From a virus (taxonomy: Duplodnaviria > Heunggongvirae > Uroviricota > Caudoviricetes): a DNA stretch of 40,471 nt. Both the position numbers and the translations under genes were made by a program. The notes under the pieces were generated by a model. The model made no database searches and was not told where the DNA came from. It saw nothing but the letters and a program-made list of their open reading frames with translations. Location: positions 1 through 40,471 of IMG/VR virus record IMGVR_UViG_2547132281_000014. One strand, given 5' to 3'. Positions within the stretch are counted from its first letter, which is position 1; every line of letters begins with the position of its first letter. This document shows positions 3,155 through 14,721 of this stretch, piece after piece.

Positions 3155-3516
3155 TATGCTCCAGCCTCCGGTGCTTTTGGCATTACTGCCCAGTGAGTGA
3201 TATTGACGTTTTCAAGGTCCCCGACCTGAAATGTCCACTGCCATTCTCCGGTTTCTTTTTGTCCCCAGGTGTACCAGAGAGAACGCCAGCCAATTAGCCA
3301 GCCTTCTCCGTTAGCATCGAATAACAAAACACTTTCATTTGCTGGTGGCAGTTCAGTTGACACTGGTATTACTTTGTTTTCCTGTGCTGCACATTTAGCT
3401 TCAAGCGCATCGAATTTACGCACCAGGTATTCAGCATCTGTTTCATTTACTTTCAGATCTCGCGGTACACATCTCCCACGAAGAAACCCTTCCATTTCGA
3501 AAACATTCATGCGCAT
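3154..3516 (-). CDS. hypothetical phage protein, YfdS-like (120 aa)
   Basis: ATG at 3516; the upstream gene's stop codon falls within its first codons; 120 aa as in YfdS. Confidence 0.55.
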   Translation of the reverse strand: MRMNVFEMEGFLRGRCVPRDLKVNETDAEYLVRKFDALEAKCAAQENKVIPVSTELPPANESVLLFDANGEGWLIGWRSLWYTWGQKETGEWQWTFQVGDLENVNITHWAVMPKAPEAGA

Positions 3517-4043
3517 TTGCGTAACTCCGATAACTCGTTAAAGCGTTCCATAAACATCCCGTAGGCATGGCCCGGTGCCAGTGGAATCACGTTGAACATC
3601 TCTGTTGCCGGGATATCTTCCAGTACAGGCCAGAAAGAGCCATCATCAAGCCCGAGATCGCGGCGTTCGGTTGCCAGCATGATGAGATCGGCATATTTCA
3701 CGGGCGTACTCATAACTGGCGGTAACCCGTATTTCTCACGGATTACGGCGTCTATTTTTTCTTCCATTTGTTTATAGTCAGGAAGAAGGCGTTTCAGTGG
3801 TGCGGGAATGTCCTGGCAATACGCTTCTGTTGCATCATGCATTAACGCTTCAAAAGCAAATTCCTGCGGCACCAGCTGGCTGCAAAGAACCGCATGTTGG
3901 GCGACGCTGTAGAAGTGCGAAAGATGACCGGCAAAGCGACAGATATTTGAAAGGGAAACCGCGATATCGTTAATATCGATGTCGTCTTTATTTATCCTGT
4001 CATAATAAAAATGCTTCCCGGAAAAAGTTTTAATAAATGACAT
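3507..4043 (-). CDS. HD-domain phosphohydrolase (5'-deoxynucleotidase-like), YfdR-like, 178 aa
   Basis: HD motif LMHDATEAY; internal ATG at 4043 with GGAG Shine-Dalgarno gives 178 aa; the ORF track extends to 4070 with an alternative start. Confidence 0.75.
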   Translation of the reverse strand: MSFIKTFSGKHFYYDRINKDDIDINDIAVSLSNICRFAGHLSHFYSVAQHAVLCSQLVPQEFAFEALMHDATEAYCQDIPAPLKRLLPDYKQMEEKIDAVIREKYGLPPVMSTPVKYADLIMLATERRDLGLDDGSFWPVLEDIPATEMFNVIPLAPGHAYGMFMERFNELSELRKCA

Positions 4044-4170
4044 TTTGTTCTCCACGTATATGCGCTGCACCGCGCTGAATTCTGGTAAAAAGAATCCCTC
4101 ACCATCCGGCGATTATTGAGTAAATTACGTTTCCATAAATGCCCCCGCAGGGGCATTTGCAGTAATGAAA

Positions 4171-4995
4171 TCAGGCGGTGAAAGTACCAATAAAGGTTTC
4201 TACTTTGCTGTCCTTGAATTTCTCAACAAGCAGATCACGAAATTCGTTAGCCATTTCTTCCTGCACCGCCTCCAGCTGAATAATGCGCAGAACCAGTACA
4301 GGACGATCGCCAGTGATAATACTGAGGCGTAATTTAAACGGACGTTCTTTCAGACCTTCAAACGGAACGCATTTAAATTCAAATGCCACTGGCATAATGT
4401 CTTTGGTCTTCGCTTCGACAGACTCCATCAGGGAGCGTTTGCCGCTGAAGTCATTATCTTCAAAATCAGCGGTCTGGTTTGCTTCAATCGTGATTTTACG
4501 GACAGCCGCAGCCGCTTTTGTTGCCTGAATAGCGTCACCATTAGCATCAAAGCCCACAAGATAGTCGGCCCAGTCTTCAATCCATTCTGCTAGTGACTTC
4601 TGGGAGTTACGCTCGCCGTTAACAGACAACAGAGCAGAGAACGGTGCTGTCTTTTTCAGTTTGAGTGTGGCGGTGTTATCTGCGTGACCTGGTTCATCAA
4701 TAGTACCCAGGTTAAGCACACTGACGGCACGCATATTATCAGCATCGATAAAGCAGCGGGTGCCTTCATCTGCAAGATCTTTAGAATAACGGGTAAAGTC
4801 ATCGATGCTGGCAGTGGAAAGCGCACCACGGAAACGGAAGCGATTTAAATTAAATTTTTCCAGATCATGAATGCGGAAATTCTCAGGCAATGCCACAGCA
4901 TCGGCACCAATCTTACTGATAATTTCATTAACACCCTGAGCAGAAATAAGGGCATGGATTTGATTAATTGCGGTTGCGTCTAAGTTCTGAGACAT
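4171..4995 (-). CDS. YfdQ-like protein (DUF2303-type), 274 aa
   Basis: ATG at 4995 with GAGGA Shine-Dalgarno; size and position match YfdQ upstream of the YfdR-like gene. Confidence 0.65.
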
Positions 4996-5060: not shown

Positions 5061-5423
5061 TTAACGACCTGCTGCGCGGAGTTTTCCGTCAGGTTCACCG
5101 GCAAGAGTCAGTAACTGTCCCTGGTCTTCCTGCAGAATAGTCAGGCGACCACCGCGATTGACATACATCGGCGTTTCGGTGGTGTCTTCTTCGGAAATTT
5201 TCCCGCGGTTAGTCGGGCGAACATATGAGAGTTTGTGTTTGATTTTCACTCGGTTCTCATCAAACGGTTCGATTTCCAGGTTGAGCGAGACCTTACCTTT
5301 GGTTTTCGTGTTCATCACACCGGAAGCGACTTCACTGAGAACTGCGCCGATTTTGGTTTCAAATACGCCGCCGTCCAGCTCCCCGATAAATGCCTGCACA
5401 TCAGTACTGCGTTCGCTAGCCAT
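5061..5423 (-). CDS. hypothetical early-left protein, 120 aa (begins MASERSTDVQAF)
   Basis: Internal ATG at 5423 preceded by GAGGAG; the longer track ORF (to 5741) would run through the GC-rich structured noncoding block and looks like an artefact. Confidence 0.55.
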   Translation of the reverse strand: MASERSTDVQAFIGELDGGVFETKIGAVLSEVASGVMNTKTKGKVSLNLEIEPFDENRVKIKHKLSYVRPTNRGKISEEDTTETPMYVNRGGRLTILQEDQGQLLTLAGEPDGKLRAAGR

Positions 5424-5560
5424 TTTGCTGCTCCTCATCATATCGACTCTGCAAGGTCGGTTAGTTTCTCCACAAAACAGAGAAGAACACCTGCGGTGAC
5501 TGCCGCCCGGATGGATTGGGTTATGAGCCCGTCGTCCGGTGATGCTCTTCTCTGTTTTGT

Positions 5561-5604
5561 AAAAAGGACGGTACCAGCCGGAAGCAAGGGTACAAGCTGG
5601 TACC
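5561..5604 (-). terminator. putative intrinsic terminator for leftward (minus-strand) transcription
   Basis: 9-bp perfect stem GGTACCAGC/GCTGGTACC with 17-nt loop, followed on the minus strand by CCUUUUUAC. Confidence 0.5.
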
Positions 5605-5627
5605 GCCAAGACTACACACAGCATCAA

Positions 5628-5751
5628 GTTGTGGTGCCGGGTGCCTCCCGGTGCCTGGCGAAGGTTGCACACCAGGCGGGTGGGTATCCACAGAAGGTCG
5701 ACTGTCAGCCTCAACCTTAACCCGCGTGCGCTGAGCCGCATTCACCACAAC
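5628..5751. other. closed multi-helix structured element of unknown function (candidate ncRNA or cis-regulatory RNA)
   Basis: Long-range 9-bp helix GTTGTGGTG (5628-5636) / CACCACAAC (5743-5751) encloses nested hairpins CCGGG..CCCGG, GCCTGG..CCAGGC and GCGGGT..ACCCGC; GC-rich island with no convincing ORF on either strand. Confidence 0.3.
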
Positions 5752-5891
5752 GCTAAGGATTCTCTCTGGTTGAAAATACTTAGCTGTTATGTGCCTGCTT
5801 TTAGCCACATCAGGCGAGGTGGACCTGGTTATTCCCCAACAACAAGGATTCGGTTAATCTGGTTATCCCCAACAACGCAAAAGGAAAAGAA

Positions 5892-6326
5892 ATGTCCGGT
5901 AATATCTATACGCTGTACAAATCCCACTGTGAAAATGTTGGAAAGTATCGGGGCATTGAAATCAGTGGGGTAGTGTCATCAGTCGAAATAAGCAAAGTTG
6001 AATCAAGGGCAACATTACTTACTCTTTTGGACCTTGTCTTACATGAGCACCGGAAGAAATTCGGCACTCCCTATAATCAGTTGAATGGGAAAAAGGCTCT
6101 GGTTCACCTTATTCTGATGAAGCATCACTGGATGCCAAAACAGATTAATGAGATGAAATTTGATGAACTTCTTCTTTCAATTCAGGATGAACTCACACTT
6201 GATAAAATAAGCGTAACCGCCCAGAAATTTTTAGATTATCGAGACTGGAGAGCACAAATTCATCACTTTGATGATTTTGACGAAAATGAATGGGATCCTA
6301 ATTTGTCTGCACAATATCTAAAGTAA
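5892..6326 (+). CDS. hypothetical protein, 144 aa; AT-rich moron transcribed antisense to the early-left operon
   Basis: ATG at 5892 preceded by AAGGAAAAG; low GC; opposite orientation to all neighbours; two direct repeats upstream and a plus-strand terminator downstream. Confidence 0.6.
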   Translation: MSGNIYTLYKSHCENVGKYRGIEISGVVSSVEISKVESRATLLTLLDLVLHEHRKKFGTPYNQLNGKKALVHLILMKHHWMPKQINEMKFDELLLSIQDELTLDKISVTAQKFLDYRDWRAQIHHFDDFDENEWDPNLSAQYLK

Positions 6327-6504
6327 CATCCTGTGATAAAACCGTGATTTCCTGATCCAGTTTTTTTAAGGAGTCTATTGTTTCCTGTCGATAAGACAGC
6401 ACTTCACGAAGCTGGTTTATAGCTGCCAGCTTCTTTGTCATCCACTCATAAATTTCCTCATCTGTGTAGCCAGGCGCGACGATTTTGGGTTCTGTTTTGT
6501 GCAT
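6298..6504 (-). CDS. hypothetical protein, 68 aa, first gene downstream of the putative PL
   Basis: ATG at 6504 with GAGGAG Shine-Dalgarno 8 nt upstream (the track ORF starts at an upstream TTG); no arginine-rich N-like motif. Confidence 0.45.
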   Translation of the reverse strand: MHKTEPKIVAPGYTDEEIYEWMTKKLAAINQLREVLSYRQETIDSLKKLDQEITVLSQDVTLDIVQTN

Positions 6505-6562
6505 TTCACATCTCCTCAAGTTATCAGTTACTTGTTGATGGGGACCAGATTGTTAAAGAGCT

Positions 6563-6586
6563 AAGCGTCCTGTAGGGCGCTTTTTT
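6563..6586 (+). terminator. putative rho-independent terminator (plus strand)
   Basis: AAGCGTCC-TGTA-GGGCGCTT hairpin followed by TTTTTTG; lies about 240 nt downstream of the 5892..6326 gene, within and antisense to the 68-aa minus-strand gene. Confidence 0.5.
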
Positions 6587-6668
6587 GTTGCTAACGAATC
6601 ATCCTGGACTTCATATGCCCCAGGCGGCTACTTCGTGGGCGTCCTGCCTGTTCGTTGTCGGCAAAATG

Positions 6669-6697
6669 ATATTGCTACTTAAAGTTGCAAAAATCAA
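6669..6697 (-). promoter_or_regulatory. putative PL promoter with embedded operator (OL)
   Basis: Minus strand reads TTGATT-N17-CAATAT; the spacer holds CTACTTAAAGTTGCAA, the same motif as in the PR spacer. Confidence 0.45.
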
Positions 6698-7016
6698 CTA
6701 CAAAAAGTAGAAGTTAAGGGCATAAAAACGCATTTTGAAATTAATTCATTGAATTTACAGGTAAAATATTTTGGGGGCTATGATCAAAAAATTATATTGT
6801 GAAGTTAGCTGAGTTGTAGAACGTGATGGATTGTTTCATTGTGGCTGAGATCAGTATGTGATCTAGTTAATCATCAAGTGGGGAGAAGTCAATCATGAGA
6901 GTATTGTTGAGTTTTTGGAGGCTAAGTGTAAAACGGTAGGGAATTTACTACTCAATGGATTGTGTGATTTAGCCTCGATAGTAAGAAAACTAGGGCAGGT
7001 CATAGTCAAAAACTTA

Positions 7017-7731: not shown

Positions 7732-8472
7732 CTATAACCGATTGTATTTTATTGACTCATGAATCAACGCCTTGCCCATTACATAAAGCTGATCCTGCGA
7801 TTTTTCATCGATGTACCATTTCTCATAGGCAGGGTTATCCGAAAGAACGGCTAGCTTGTCACCTTGCATTTGAAGACGTTTAACATGAAAAGTCTTACCG
7901 TAAACGAAAGAGTAAATTCCATCAGTCTGGAAGTGACGAACAGAAATGTCGACAAACAGTCGATCTCCGGAAACGAGAGTAGGGGACATACTATCGCCAT
8001 TTACAGTCATAACCTTAATATCATCCTGAGAACGGTTACCGAAAAGAGAACGGGCATGTTCTGTTGTGAACTCAATGGCGTAGAGCACATCAACATAGTC
8101 TGAAAGCATATAGGTTCCAGGTCCTGCGCTAACGCTAAGATCTAAAACTTCTATCCTGTATACGTCGGGTTTTGTTGGATTGGGGATGCTTGCCATTTCC
8201 TTACATCCTTCTCTCTCGCCAACACCATATTCTAAATATGAAGCCGATACCCCCAGAGCCAACGCAAGTTTATTCATGACAGAGGCACGAGGCTTCGCTG
8301 CGCCGATTGTGTATCGCCGCGCCATTTCATATGTAACGCCAACAAGACTTTTGAGTTGGGTGACAGAAATTCCCTTGTTTGTCATTAACTCGTTTAGTCT
8401 CTTGGCGAAATCTGGATACTTCTGTTCTTCTACCATAGGTAGAAGATTACTCACATCACATACGCTCGTCAT
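7732..8472 (-). CDS. CI-type prophage repressor (N-terminal HTH plus C-terminal S24 LexA-like peptidase domain)
   Basis: HTH region GISVTQLKSLVGVTYEMARRY and peptidase motif VNGDSMSPTL; divergent from the cro-like gene across operators; the track start at 8493 is a TTG, and the ATG at 8472 may give a leaderless start. Confidence 0.85.
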   Translation of the reverse strand: MTSVCDVSNLLPMVEEQKYPDFAKRLNELMTNKGISVTQLKSLVGVTYEMARRYTIGAAKPRASVMNKLALALGVSASYLEYGVGEREGCKEMASIPNPTKPDVYRIEVLDLSVSAGPGTYMLSDYVDVLYAIEFTTEHARSLFGNRSQDDIKVMTVNGDSMSPTLVSGDRLFVDISVRHFQTDGIYSFVYGKTFHVKRLQMQGDKLAVLSDNPAYEKWYIDEKSQDQLYVMGKALIHESIKYNRL

Positions 8473-8489
8473 TTCTATTTTAAGTAGTT

Positions 8490-8518
8490 GCAATTCGCTA
8501 CTTTAAGTAGCATTATCC
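8490..8518 (+). promoter_or_regulatory. putative PR promoter with embedded operator (OR)
   Basis: TTGCAA-N17-CATTAT with spacer containing CTACTTTAAGTAG; followed by AGGAG and the cro-like ATG at 8544; inverted AAGTAG/CTACTT half-sites across 8480-8510. Confidence 0.5.
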
Positions 8519-14355: not shown

Positions 14356-14721
14356 GTGATGCGTGATATTCAGATGGTTCTGGATCGTTGGGGAGCATGG
14401 GCGGCGAGTGATAGTTCAGGAGTAGATTATTCTCCTATAGCTGCTGGGTTTAAAGGGCTTCTTCCCTATACAAGCAAAACACGTCAGGCTTGTTCAGATA
14501 GTGATGCATTAATTATTGAAGGTTGTCTTGCTCGTCTAAAGCAAAAAAGGCCGGACGAACATTCGCTTCTTGTTGCCCATTACCTATACGGTATCTCTAA
14601 AAGAAAGCTCGCCAAGGCTAGTAAAAAGGATGAGAAACTAATACGCATTGAGATACAGATGGCTGAGGGATTTATCGATGGTTGCCTTAGTATGCTCGAT
14701 ATACGTTTAGAATGTGAATAG
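14356..14721 (+). CDS. late-gene antiterminator Q (QuuD-like family)
   Basis: N-terminal MRDIQMVLDRWGAWAA ... IAAGFKGL matches my memory of DLP12 QuuD; upstream of the lysis cassette. Confidence 0.75.
   Translation: MMRDIQMVLDRWGAWAASDSSGVDYSPIAAGFKGLLPYTSKTRQACSDSDALIIEGCLARLKQKRPDEHSLLVAHYLYGISKRKLAKASKKDEKLIRIEIQMAEGFIDGCLSMLDIRLECE

Follow-up and report, generated by a model that had tools for sequence, protein, structure and literature searches.

What is encoded between the leftward promoter and yfdP in lambdoid prophages of the SfV type? The window analysed here, the 40,471-nt IMG/VR record IMGVR_UViG_2547132281_000014 at its full length, is an SfV-like lambdoid prophage of Escherichia coli adjoining a tRNA-Thr gene, and it carries a densely structured block at about 5430-5890. 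An earlier note, made from the letters alone, had called this block noncoding and placed it in the early-left operon. This was borne out, with the pL/OL region found at ~6665-6724, and all structures that it listed lie on the minus strand of the pL operon. In all annotations inspected, the element appears as a protein gene, as a pseudogene or not at all.

The block is best explained as a composite prophage small RNA (sRNA) locus, with a probability of roughly three in four: an Hfq-type trans-acting sRNA combined with a transcription stop before yfdP. Within the pL operon, a minus-strand RNA of ~190-210 nt would be made, with a pseudoknotted five-helix domain of the STnc100/PasD class as its 5' two-thirds and a DicF-like Hfq module (20-nt seed, terminator hairpin and U-tail) as its 3' third. 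Its 5' end would stem either from a promoter that escaped detection or from cutting of the pL transcript. Once released by termination at 5561-5565, the sRNA would bind Hfq and use its seed to pair with host mRNAs. Foremost among the candidates is the 5' untranslated region (5'UTR) of mepS (spr), the gene of a peptidoglycan endopeptidase. This terminator would also limit transcription into the genes from yfdP to int, and in read-through transcripts a 22-bp hairpin would likely be cut by RNase III, separating the sRNA from the yfdP mRNA. Both the direction of mepS regulation and the RNase III step are points that we infer.

A conserved RNA core with a pseudoknot

STnc100 (RF02076) is a prophage sRNA family in Rfam, and a 2026 preprint ties it to PasD1/PasD2 (EcOnc13), Northern-validated Hfq sRNAs of enteropathogenic E. 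coli (EPEC); together, STnc100 and PasD are known from prophages of Salmonella, enterohaemorrhagic E. coli (EHEC) and EPEC. At gathering thresholds, an Rfam scan of the window returns tRNA only. An E-value scan matches RF02076 at 5558-5769 on the minus strand (212 nt) over the full model, positions 1-206 of 206, with 43.0 bits and an E-value of 4e-8, a score that lies below the gathering score of 47. The earlier note had proposed such a scan together with a covariation analysis. Its suggestion of a minus-strand sRNA gene of ~150-250 nt is now supported by the Rfam match, by helix covariation, by the terminator and by ligation-based RNA interaction sequencing (RIL-seq) data for a copy in the K-12 prophage e14.

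The core helices P1, P2, P4 and P5 (Table 1) all form and covary with 19 relatives; UGGUGAAU is conserved, and the 22-mer CACCGGGAGGCACCCGGCACCA is exact in the window. This 22-mer was used as bait and found at least 120 IMG/VR contigs, so its invariance there is by construction. The 78 distinct cores obtained were grouped into 32 clusters, and pair counts and RNAalifold were run on 20 diverse cores. Over the 26 pairs in five helices, 94.8% of the cells are paired, versus 79.1% in column shuffles (0/500). Double-sided changes occur in 80 cells versus 26.8 in shuffles, and slid-partner controls pair at 39-50%. P5 also covaries outside the baited set, as CCUGG/CCAGG in the Qin prophage and as GGUGG/CCACC in Kp4866-6 and LLS, with a constant AGGCA loop.

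The 9-bp long-range helix 5628-5636 / 5743-5751 claimed earlier was thereby confirmed, with four or five hairpins inside the minus-strand fold. As an inverted repeat alone it would be near chance in 460 bp, and it is the covariation in relatives that validates it. The minus strand folds to -88.5 kcal/mol (z = -2.87, with 0/200 shuffles as good), while the plus strand reaches z = -1.61. A covariance model, R1, built from the 20 core sequences scores the window at 95.6 bits and finds a single copy there. Sequences outside its seed alignment are recovered as well: LLS (42.9 bits), Kp4866-6 (40.6), the mEp460 core type (29.4) and PasD1 (27.6).

The pseudoknot is an addition of this analysis and was not seen in the Rfam structure line. 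It is kept through at least 12 unrelated sequence pairs; phiES15 has AAGGCUGG/UCAGCCUU, and further pairs in relatives are CCAGUC/GACUGG, CUGGUG/CACCGG and AGACUGACAAA/UUUGUCAGUCU. Cognate pairing amounts to 194 versus 146.7 +/- 5.8 for permuted partners and was higher in all 5000 permutations (0/5000). Within 5636-5689 of the window core, AAGGUUGA has two possible partners: UCGACCUU nearby, giving the minimum free energy hairpin, or the P4 loop CAACCUU, giving the pseudoknot. By these models, the alternative pairings of AAGGUUGA could possibly act as a structural switch particular to this subtype.

Upstream of the core, the block common to SfV, mEp460_4F5, phiES15, sal3 and e14 starts at the 5' leader, and similarity is lost beyond it. 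In Citrobacter braakii, the leader stem GCCCGG/CCGGGC is a compensatory replacement of GCCUG/CAGGC. The second leader hairpin, within which the STnc100 match starts at 5769, is identical in SfV, mEp460_4F5 and e14 and absent from ST64B.

A constant seed and exchangeable terminators

The window core belongs to an early-type clade with P2 GCGGCUNAGCGCACGC, while late-type cores have P2 CCCCU..AGGGG. Downstream of P1, the linker motif UGCUGUGUG.AG.CUU is invariant in relatives from E. coli, Salmonella, Klebsiella, Cronobacter and Citrobacter, and this constancy persists despite three core types and five terminator stems around it. Each of the five stems is followed by C(C)UUUUU(U)AC. A constant seed beside swapped stems with the same U-tract is the pattern expected for a pairing seed and a genuine terminator.

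The terminator in the window, placed earlier at 5561-5604, proved right to within a few bases, with its stem at 5567-5578 / 5596-5607 and its U-tract at 5561-5565. Its perfect 10-bp arms (5569-5578 / 5596-5605) can be extended to 12-13 bp and are followed by CCUUUUUAC on the minus strand. A consensus terminator scanner missed it because the loop is 15-17 nt long. A terminator lies at most 130 nt downstream of 17 of the 18 early-type cores and of 78 of the 89 late-type cores.

The seed itself can be replaced. At this position, Stx2a and Stx2c phages have a core of a third type, and their seed differs too. This other linker seed, AGCCACUGCUUUGG, stands upstream of yfdP in mEp460, mEp460_4F5, Stx2a_WGPS2 and Stx2c phages, and its 11 bases GCCACUGCUUU are identical to the 5' seed of K-12 RybB. 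Judged by this identity, the AGCCACUGCUUUGG linker may be a phage-encoded mimic of the RybB seed.

Other ideas about the window seed were discarded. Self-inhibition by leader-seed pairing gave duplex energies not better than those of shuffled tails (0.07-0.34). A likeness to GcvB R1 (10/11 matches) was reached by 4.6% of shuffles, and the search for phage targets in the window gave a single match with 3 mismatches at 8443-8458, which is at chance level.

The e14 copy in K-12 and the link to mepS

The K-12 prophage e14 carries the whole element, from the leader to the long hairpin, followed by xisE and without yfdP downstream. This copy is ~97-98% identical to the window over core and seed, scores 78.8 bits with R1 and has two changes in P5 (CCGGG-GGCACCCGAC). 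It is expressed in uninduced K-12 and is annotated as the coding sequence (CDS) ymfH, b1142 (RefSeq; NC_000913 1201069-1201380). Most likely, ymfH is a misannotated RNA gene.

In RIL-seq, the second position in a chimera is a hallmark of an Hfq-bound sRNA. Table S1 of Bar et al. 2021, from a RIL-seq-based sRNA predictor, gives 'ymfH' a score of 0.113 at a cut of 0.1 and ranks it beside dicF, with 81 and 117 chimeric fragments, 3 and 4 partners, and SIC values of 0.667 and 0.75. Under the formula of Bar et al., these SIC values with k = 3 and 4 mean that ymfH took second place in all of its chimeras. The supplement of a 2025 preprint on K-12 RIL-seq (PMC12262471) places mepS.5UTR::ymfH among the strongest pairs, with 63 and 183 chimeras, odds ratios of ~2,600 and ~2,400, and p-values of 3.6e-180 and 0. 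By our own mapping, the ymfH-side boundary in that supplement, 1201195, is the last U of the predicted U-tract, which in K-12 spans 1201195-1201199. The main texts of both papers leave ymfH unmentioned.

In RNAduplex predictions, AUGCUGUG of the seed plus UAGUCU forms a duplex with the mepS leader at GGUAGAUUAUCCUCACAGCAUA, at -22.4 kcal/mol for the window and -23.4 kcal/mol for e14; the 5'UTR segment opposite AUGCUGUG is CACAGCAU. The predicted pairing falls at the CUCACA site in spr, which is the site contacted by PasD1 in EPEC. If the seed has been read correctly, the ligation junctions of K-12 ymfH chimeras should lie in or beside UAUGCUGUGUGUAGUCUU.

Several findings speak against an sRNA of this kind in the window. 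The expression and Hfq evidence all comes from the K-12 e14 copy, not from this prophage. The window seed is one base off that of e14 (UUGAUG vs UUUAUG), which shortens the mepS duplex, and the duplex energy of the window is matched by 15% of shuffled seeds, compared with 3.4% for e14. The window also scores below the curated Rfam threshold for STnc100 and far below that for DicF, its U-tail has only 5 U, and no sigma-70 promoter stands beside P1 in any early-type copy (0/18). In addition, the cores of Qin, Escherichia sp. MOD1-EC7003 and Enterobacter stand directly before an open reading frame (ORF), with neither seed nor terminator after them. A candidate for a sigma-70 promoter of its own at P1 was rejected: GAGAAT has the right spacing without a -35 element, and it reads GAGAAC in ST64B.

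Because cores also precede ORFs without a seed or terminator, the core probably has a further function, as a 5'UTR element, beyond the sRNA model. For the sRNA itself, our guess is that the core serves as a protective or protein-binding scaffold. The Escherichia sp. MOD1-EC7003 core has the P5 loop AAGCA, and the product of the ORF after it, presumably TerB-like, resembles one encoded on another contig.

Comparison with known phage RNAs

STnc100/PasD RNAs resemble the window element in their P1-closed multi-helix core with UGGUGAAU, the CCGGG-AGGCA-CCCGG hairpin and a CACCA closing strand, followed by a seed-bearing linker and an intrinsic terminator. PasD depends on Hfq, and the spr/mepS site hit by PasD1 is the one predicted for the window seed. 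The mapped 5' end of PasD1 lies at the base of P1, two bases before AUGGUGAAU, and its seed is in the same linker. Unlike these RNAs, the window element falls below the Rfam gathering score, has P2 GCGGCUCAGCGCACGC instead of CCCCU..AGGGG, carries another seed and has no promoter abutting P1. Its core is in the pL early-left operon and not in the interval between Q and the lysis genes: where STnc100 lies 3' of Q and 5' of the lysis genes, this element lies between OL/pL and yfdP, and no core copy follows the Q gene of the window (14356-14721).

The 3' module resembles DicF (RF00039), from the dicB operon of Qin, which is matured by an RNase III cut. Both RNAs lie in an early-left operon under an immunity repressor, and both end at an intrinsic terminator of the type UUGGCGGUA.CAG, with a DicF-like 5' arm in the window (UUGGCGGUACCAG versus UUUGGCGGUAUCAG in DicF). 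The window RNA is then followed by a long duplex suited to RNase III, a further likeness to DicF, and Qin has the same core type beside dicF. The Rfam DicF model scores the window at 19.4 bits (E 0.09), below its gathering threshold of 48. A C. braakii RNA that combines the window's seed with a terminator like that of DicF reaches 43.2 bits with the DicF model and bridges both. Homology of the window 3' module to DicF is plausible on sequence grounds, short of established family membership. Unlike in DicF, the seed is another one, and the terminator loop is UUGUACCCUUGCUUCCGG, whereas that of DicF is UUUUACUCCG, which we take to be its ftsZ-pairing part.

Late-type cores typically sit 3' of the Q gene and 5' of holin, lysozyme and Rz. 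In 32 of the 89, a promoter TTGACx-N16-19-TAnnnT ends a few bases before P1. Since this promoter abuts P1 and a terminator follows, late-type cores form the 5' part of a short pR' transcript. Many are exactly of the kind of StxS and lambda 6S RNA, which are short terminated pR' transcripts, in the order Q gene, promoter TTGACx-N17/18-TAAATT, core, terminator and holin, and correspond to an abundant sRNA in lysogens. Unlike these, the window copy is not at pR'.

The put RNA of HK022 (~70 nt, two stems) occurs after pL and again after pR (PMC9378689). Like the window element, it is a structured RNA early in the leftward operon of an N-less lambdoid phage. Unlike put, the window element occurs once, is ~125 nt long and contains a pseudoknot, and the terminator that belongs to it is functional in the e14 copy. 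The antitermination-like reading offered earlier thus did not hold up as a put-like antiterminator: R1, run with filters off, gives no hit in HK022 22-40.7 kb, and the window has only the one copy. Two further identities were dismissed. The PasB probe sequence is absent from the element, and HnrS (EcOnc10-12) is an unrelated 66-nt late-region sRNA.

Alternative explanations

The alternative that survives best treats the block as a purely cis-acting leader of the yfdP operon, consisting of a tL1-like attenuator and an RNase III or translational hairpin, with a released RNA that has no targets. This leader would include the long hairpin directly 3' of the U-tract. The 15-bp perfect inverted repeat described earlier is the outer part of 25-nt arms (5472-5496 / 5536-5560, 84% complementary) and forms the hairpin base; by our own estimate, such a perfect repeat within 460 bp has a chance expectation of ~1e-4. 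The 22-bp stem is kept in 6 variants with a compensatory change in 5 pairs, its G-U pairs fit a minus-strand RNA only, and its apical sequence is highly conserved. A duplex of 22 bp is a classical RNase III substrate. Cleavage of the hairpin by RNase III in read-through transcripts, which we infer by analogy with DicF maturation, makes the earlier idea of a processing site plausible. At the smaller hairpin 5442-5461, ST64B, sal3, Kp4866-6 and LLS have a different hairpin (GGCGG..CCGCC) instead.

The setting also suits a cis-acting leader, as the block lies in the pL operon right before yfdP without a detectable promoter of its own, and the long hairpin accompanies yfdP and is absent where kil comes next. 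Such a leader would be compatible with the sRNA as well. As the sole explanation it is unlikely, because the seed stays constant across genera while the terminators change, and because the e14 copy, with no yfdP downstream, is still conserved, Hfq-bound and chimeric with mepS.

It is decidedly improbable that the core is an autonomous sensor or a device acting on RNA polymerase, riboswitch-like or put-like, which gates the terminator and host-killing genes downstream. Its architecture does recall an aptamer, with a junction, a pseudoknot and invariant loop and junction bases; 89% of the cores have a terminator within 130 nt, and the downstream genes inspected are the lysis cassette, dicB and kil. 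Among known riboswitch and ribozyme families, however, there is no match: the Rfam classes give only a chance-level 'Hairpin ribozyme' hit (14.5 bits, E 5.8). The blank R1 result in HK022 and the single copy in the window point the same way. Neither length nor sequence is constant in the linker from P1 to the terminator, and no conserved alternative pairing was found. PasD and the e14 RNA accumulate in terminated form, so the core does not suppress its own terminator, and the Qin core lies after the DicF terminator, not before it.

A protein-coding reading of the block, in line with its annotation as YmfH or a 'hypothetical protein', is very hard to maintain. Mechanical ORFs of 95-226 aa do cross it, RefSeq lists ymfH b1142 as a CDS, the Prokaryotic Genome Annotation Pipeline calls a 'frameshifted hypothetical protein', and the GC-rich sequence keeps frames of ~100 aa open. 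Yet no frame is conserved: none stays open in relatives such as phiES15 and Qin, where the longest open stretches are 52 aa and 58 aa, in agreement with the earlier judgement that there is no credible ORF. Indels that are not multiples of three, including 1-nt indels between the window and ST64B, fall inside the core, substitutions compensate within helices, and RIL-seq always puts the ymfH RNA second in the chimera, as for an sRNA.

The idea that the repeats act at the DNA level, as protein-binding or recombination sites, has the perfect and near-perfect repeats and the direct repeats at a moron-exchange junction in its favour, but it is scarcely credible for the element as a whole, since the opposite strand would have A-C mismatches in place of the G-U pairs of P1, P4 and the long hairpin, folding is better for the minus strand, the U-tract is oriented, and wholly different sequences keep the pairing.

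For the two direct repeats only, a DNA-level role is possible. Both are present, at 5825-5843 and 5859-5876; their minus-strand sequence is GTTGTTGGGGA(A)TAACCAG, and they are 76-78% identical to the leader/P1 5' segment of the element (5745-5762 vs 5834-5851 at 78%; 5740-5756 vs 5865-5881 at 76%). They lie outside the block common to SfV, mEp460_4F5 and e14 and are absent from those three. In other genomes, both repeats stand before a different moron in one case, and a single copy is left in another. The suggestion that they are CI operators found no support, as no further copy occurs in the window within 3 mismatches and the OR/OL palindromes CTACTTTAAGTAG differ in sequence. From these sequence likenesses, we read them as recombination scars, partial duplications of the core 5' end at the moron-exchange junction. 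A supposed inverted copy flanking the moron at 6532-6551 was rejected, being 75% identical over 20 nt, at chance level, and unrecovered within 3 mismatches.

Distribution and modular exchange

Early-type cores sit between the immunity repressor and the first delayed-early genes in SfV, mEp460_4F5, ST64B, sal3 and phiES15, the last of these with kil as the next gene. In species-representative genomes, this clade is found only in Escherichia, Shigella, Citrobacter and Enterobacter, plus two metagenome bins labelled Veillonella and Collinsella that we take to be contaminated. The window's variant of core plus seed occurs in 1,874 of 5,426 complete E. coli genomes, as well as in SfV/SfII/SfIV and some other E. 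coli phages. Phages of Salmonella (ST64B), Klebsiella and Cronobacter have related core variants with the same seed.

An unannotated early-type core lies between dicF and dicB in the Qin prophage of K-12 (NC_000913 ~1649446-1649586; Rfam 34.1 bits, E 1e-5). It has an 11-bp P1, the P5 CCUGG/CCAGG and the pseudoknot CAGUUAA/UUAACUG. E. albertii, E. ruysiae, Shigella and C. braakii share the arrangement dicF-core-dicB. Since the order in Qin is sRNA-core and that in the window core-sRNA, the core and the DicF-type sRNA are two modules that occur in either order. Some viral contigs hold tandem same-strand core pairs, 484 nt (n=4), 267 nt (n=1) or 922 nt (n=1) apart. Such tandem cores would allow modules to be reshuffled from one of these two orders to the other.

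Just upstream of the core, Kp4866-6, sal3 and Stx2a_WGPS2 have hairpins that resemble a tRNA T-arm (GGTTCGATTCC, GTCCGTTCGATTCGGAC); as tRNA genes these were rejected, since ARAGORN calls none there. A supposed degenerate core copy in the lambda late leader between tR' and S (44858-44940, with the P1-like match UUGUGCUGAAU...CAGCACAA) was rejected, as its search match of 10 bits (E 0.11) is not significant. The yfdO-yfdP spacer of K-12 CPS-53 is without the element and shares only the yfdP ribosome-binding site.

Genomic setting

Table 1. Features of the RNA element and its surroundings in the window
Feature	Position	Strand	Details
5' leader	5793-5822	minus	CCACC, then hairpin GCCUG-(13 nt loop)-CAGGC
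Second leader hairpin	5752-5784	minus	GCUAAG-(21 nt)-CUUAGC; abuts P1
Structured core	5628-5751	minus	STnc100/PasD-type: P1, P2, variable region, P4, P5 and pseudoknot
P1 closing helix	5743-5751 / 5628-5636	minus	9 bp
P4		minus	GCCUGGUG / CGCCAGGC
P5		minus	CCGGG-AGGCA-CCCGG
Pseudoknot		minus	AAGGUUG (3' of P2) with CAACCUU (P4 loop)
Single-stranded linker, candidate seed	5608-5627 (20 nt)	minus	UUGAUGCUGUGUGUAGUCUU
Predicted Rho-independent terminator / Hfq-type 3' module	5561-5607	minus	stem GGCGGUACCAGC / GCUGGUACCGUC; U-tract 5561-5565
Long hairpin, yfdP leader	5472-5560	minus	22-bp basal stem; conserved apical part CGACGGGCUCAUAACCCAAUCCAUCC
Small hairpin, Shine-Dalgarno and yfdP start	5423-5461	minus	hairpin 5442-5461; GAGGAG; start 5423
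Two direct repeats	5825-5876 (5825-5843, 5859-5876)		CTGGTTAT(T)CCCCAACAAC; upstream of plus-strand moron
yfdR	3507-4070	minus
yfdQ	4171-4995	minus
yfdP	5061-5423	minus	start codon at 5423
144-aa ECs1072-family moron	5892-6326	plus	antisense to pL transcription; outside RNA element
OL/pL region	6665-6724	minus	inverted copy of OR operator block; candidate pL TTGATT-17-CAATAT
LexA-type repressor	7732-8493
Q antiterminator gene	14356-14721

The immunity region is marked by a 57-nt inverted duplication of the operator block (6668-6724 / 8461-8517), which carries the palindromes CTACTTTAAGTAG, with the OR palindromes at 8475-8510. By its sequence, this duplication defines OL/pL and OR/pR of this immunity type, and the leftward pL is predicted at ~6665-6700. 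The core sits ~890 nt downstream of this candidate pL, past a 73-aa ORF, in the early-left operon, and is followed in gene order by yfdP-yfdQ-yfdR...int. As the block lies beyond the moron when seen from pL, pL transcription must cross the moron antisense.

In relatives, other genes occupy the position of the 144-aa moron, whose product matches no Pfam family. Strong plus-strand terminator-like hairpins occur at 6563-6582, between pL and the 73-aa ORF, and at 6408-6433, inside that ORF. Because their T-runs are on the plus strand only and they lie downstream of the moron, they would halt moron transcription entering pL. Pfam searches of the neighbouring small proteins of the window gave nothing informative and no N-like protein. 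A tRNA-Thr(CGU) gene at 1369-1444 immediately adjoins the integrase gene (1459-2622) and is the probable attachment site of the prophage.

Significance

A wider possibility, to which we give only a slim chance, is that the P1-P5 core, beyond serving as an sRNA scaffold, is a portable RNA device in its own right, able to sense a ligand, a protein or RNA polymerase. If so, lambdoid phages would have put it directly before genes that drive the host into death or a halt of division, namely before the lysis cassette at pR', before dicB in Qin, before kil in phiES15 and before the yfdP operon in the window, and the family, to which the unannotated K-12 copy next to dicF and dicB belongs, would form a new class of phage riboregulator.

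The identification of the element as an sRNA would remove the phantom gene ymfH and explain the very strong mepS.5UTR::ymfH signal in the K-12 RIL-seq data. It also points to a tuning of a host cell-wall hydrolase by many prophages, comparable to what DicF does for cell division. The relatives further show that modules of the STnc100/PasD and DicF types are shuffled as cassettes of core, seed and terminator, and the swapped seeds, one of which appears to copy the RybB seed, are direct evidence of a common sRNA chassis to which phages give new targets. This widespread, unannotated locus is directly open to experiments in K-12.

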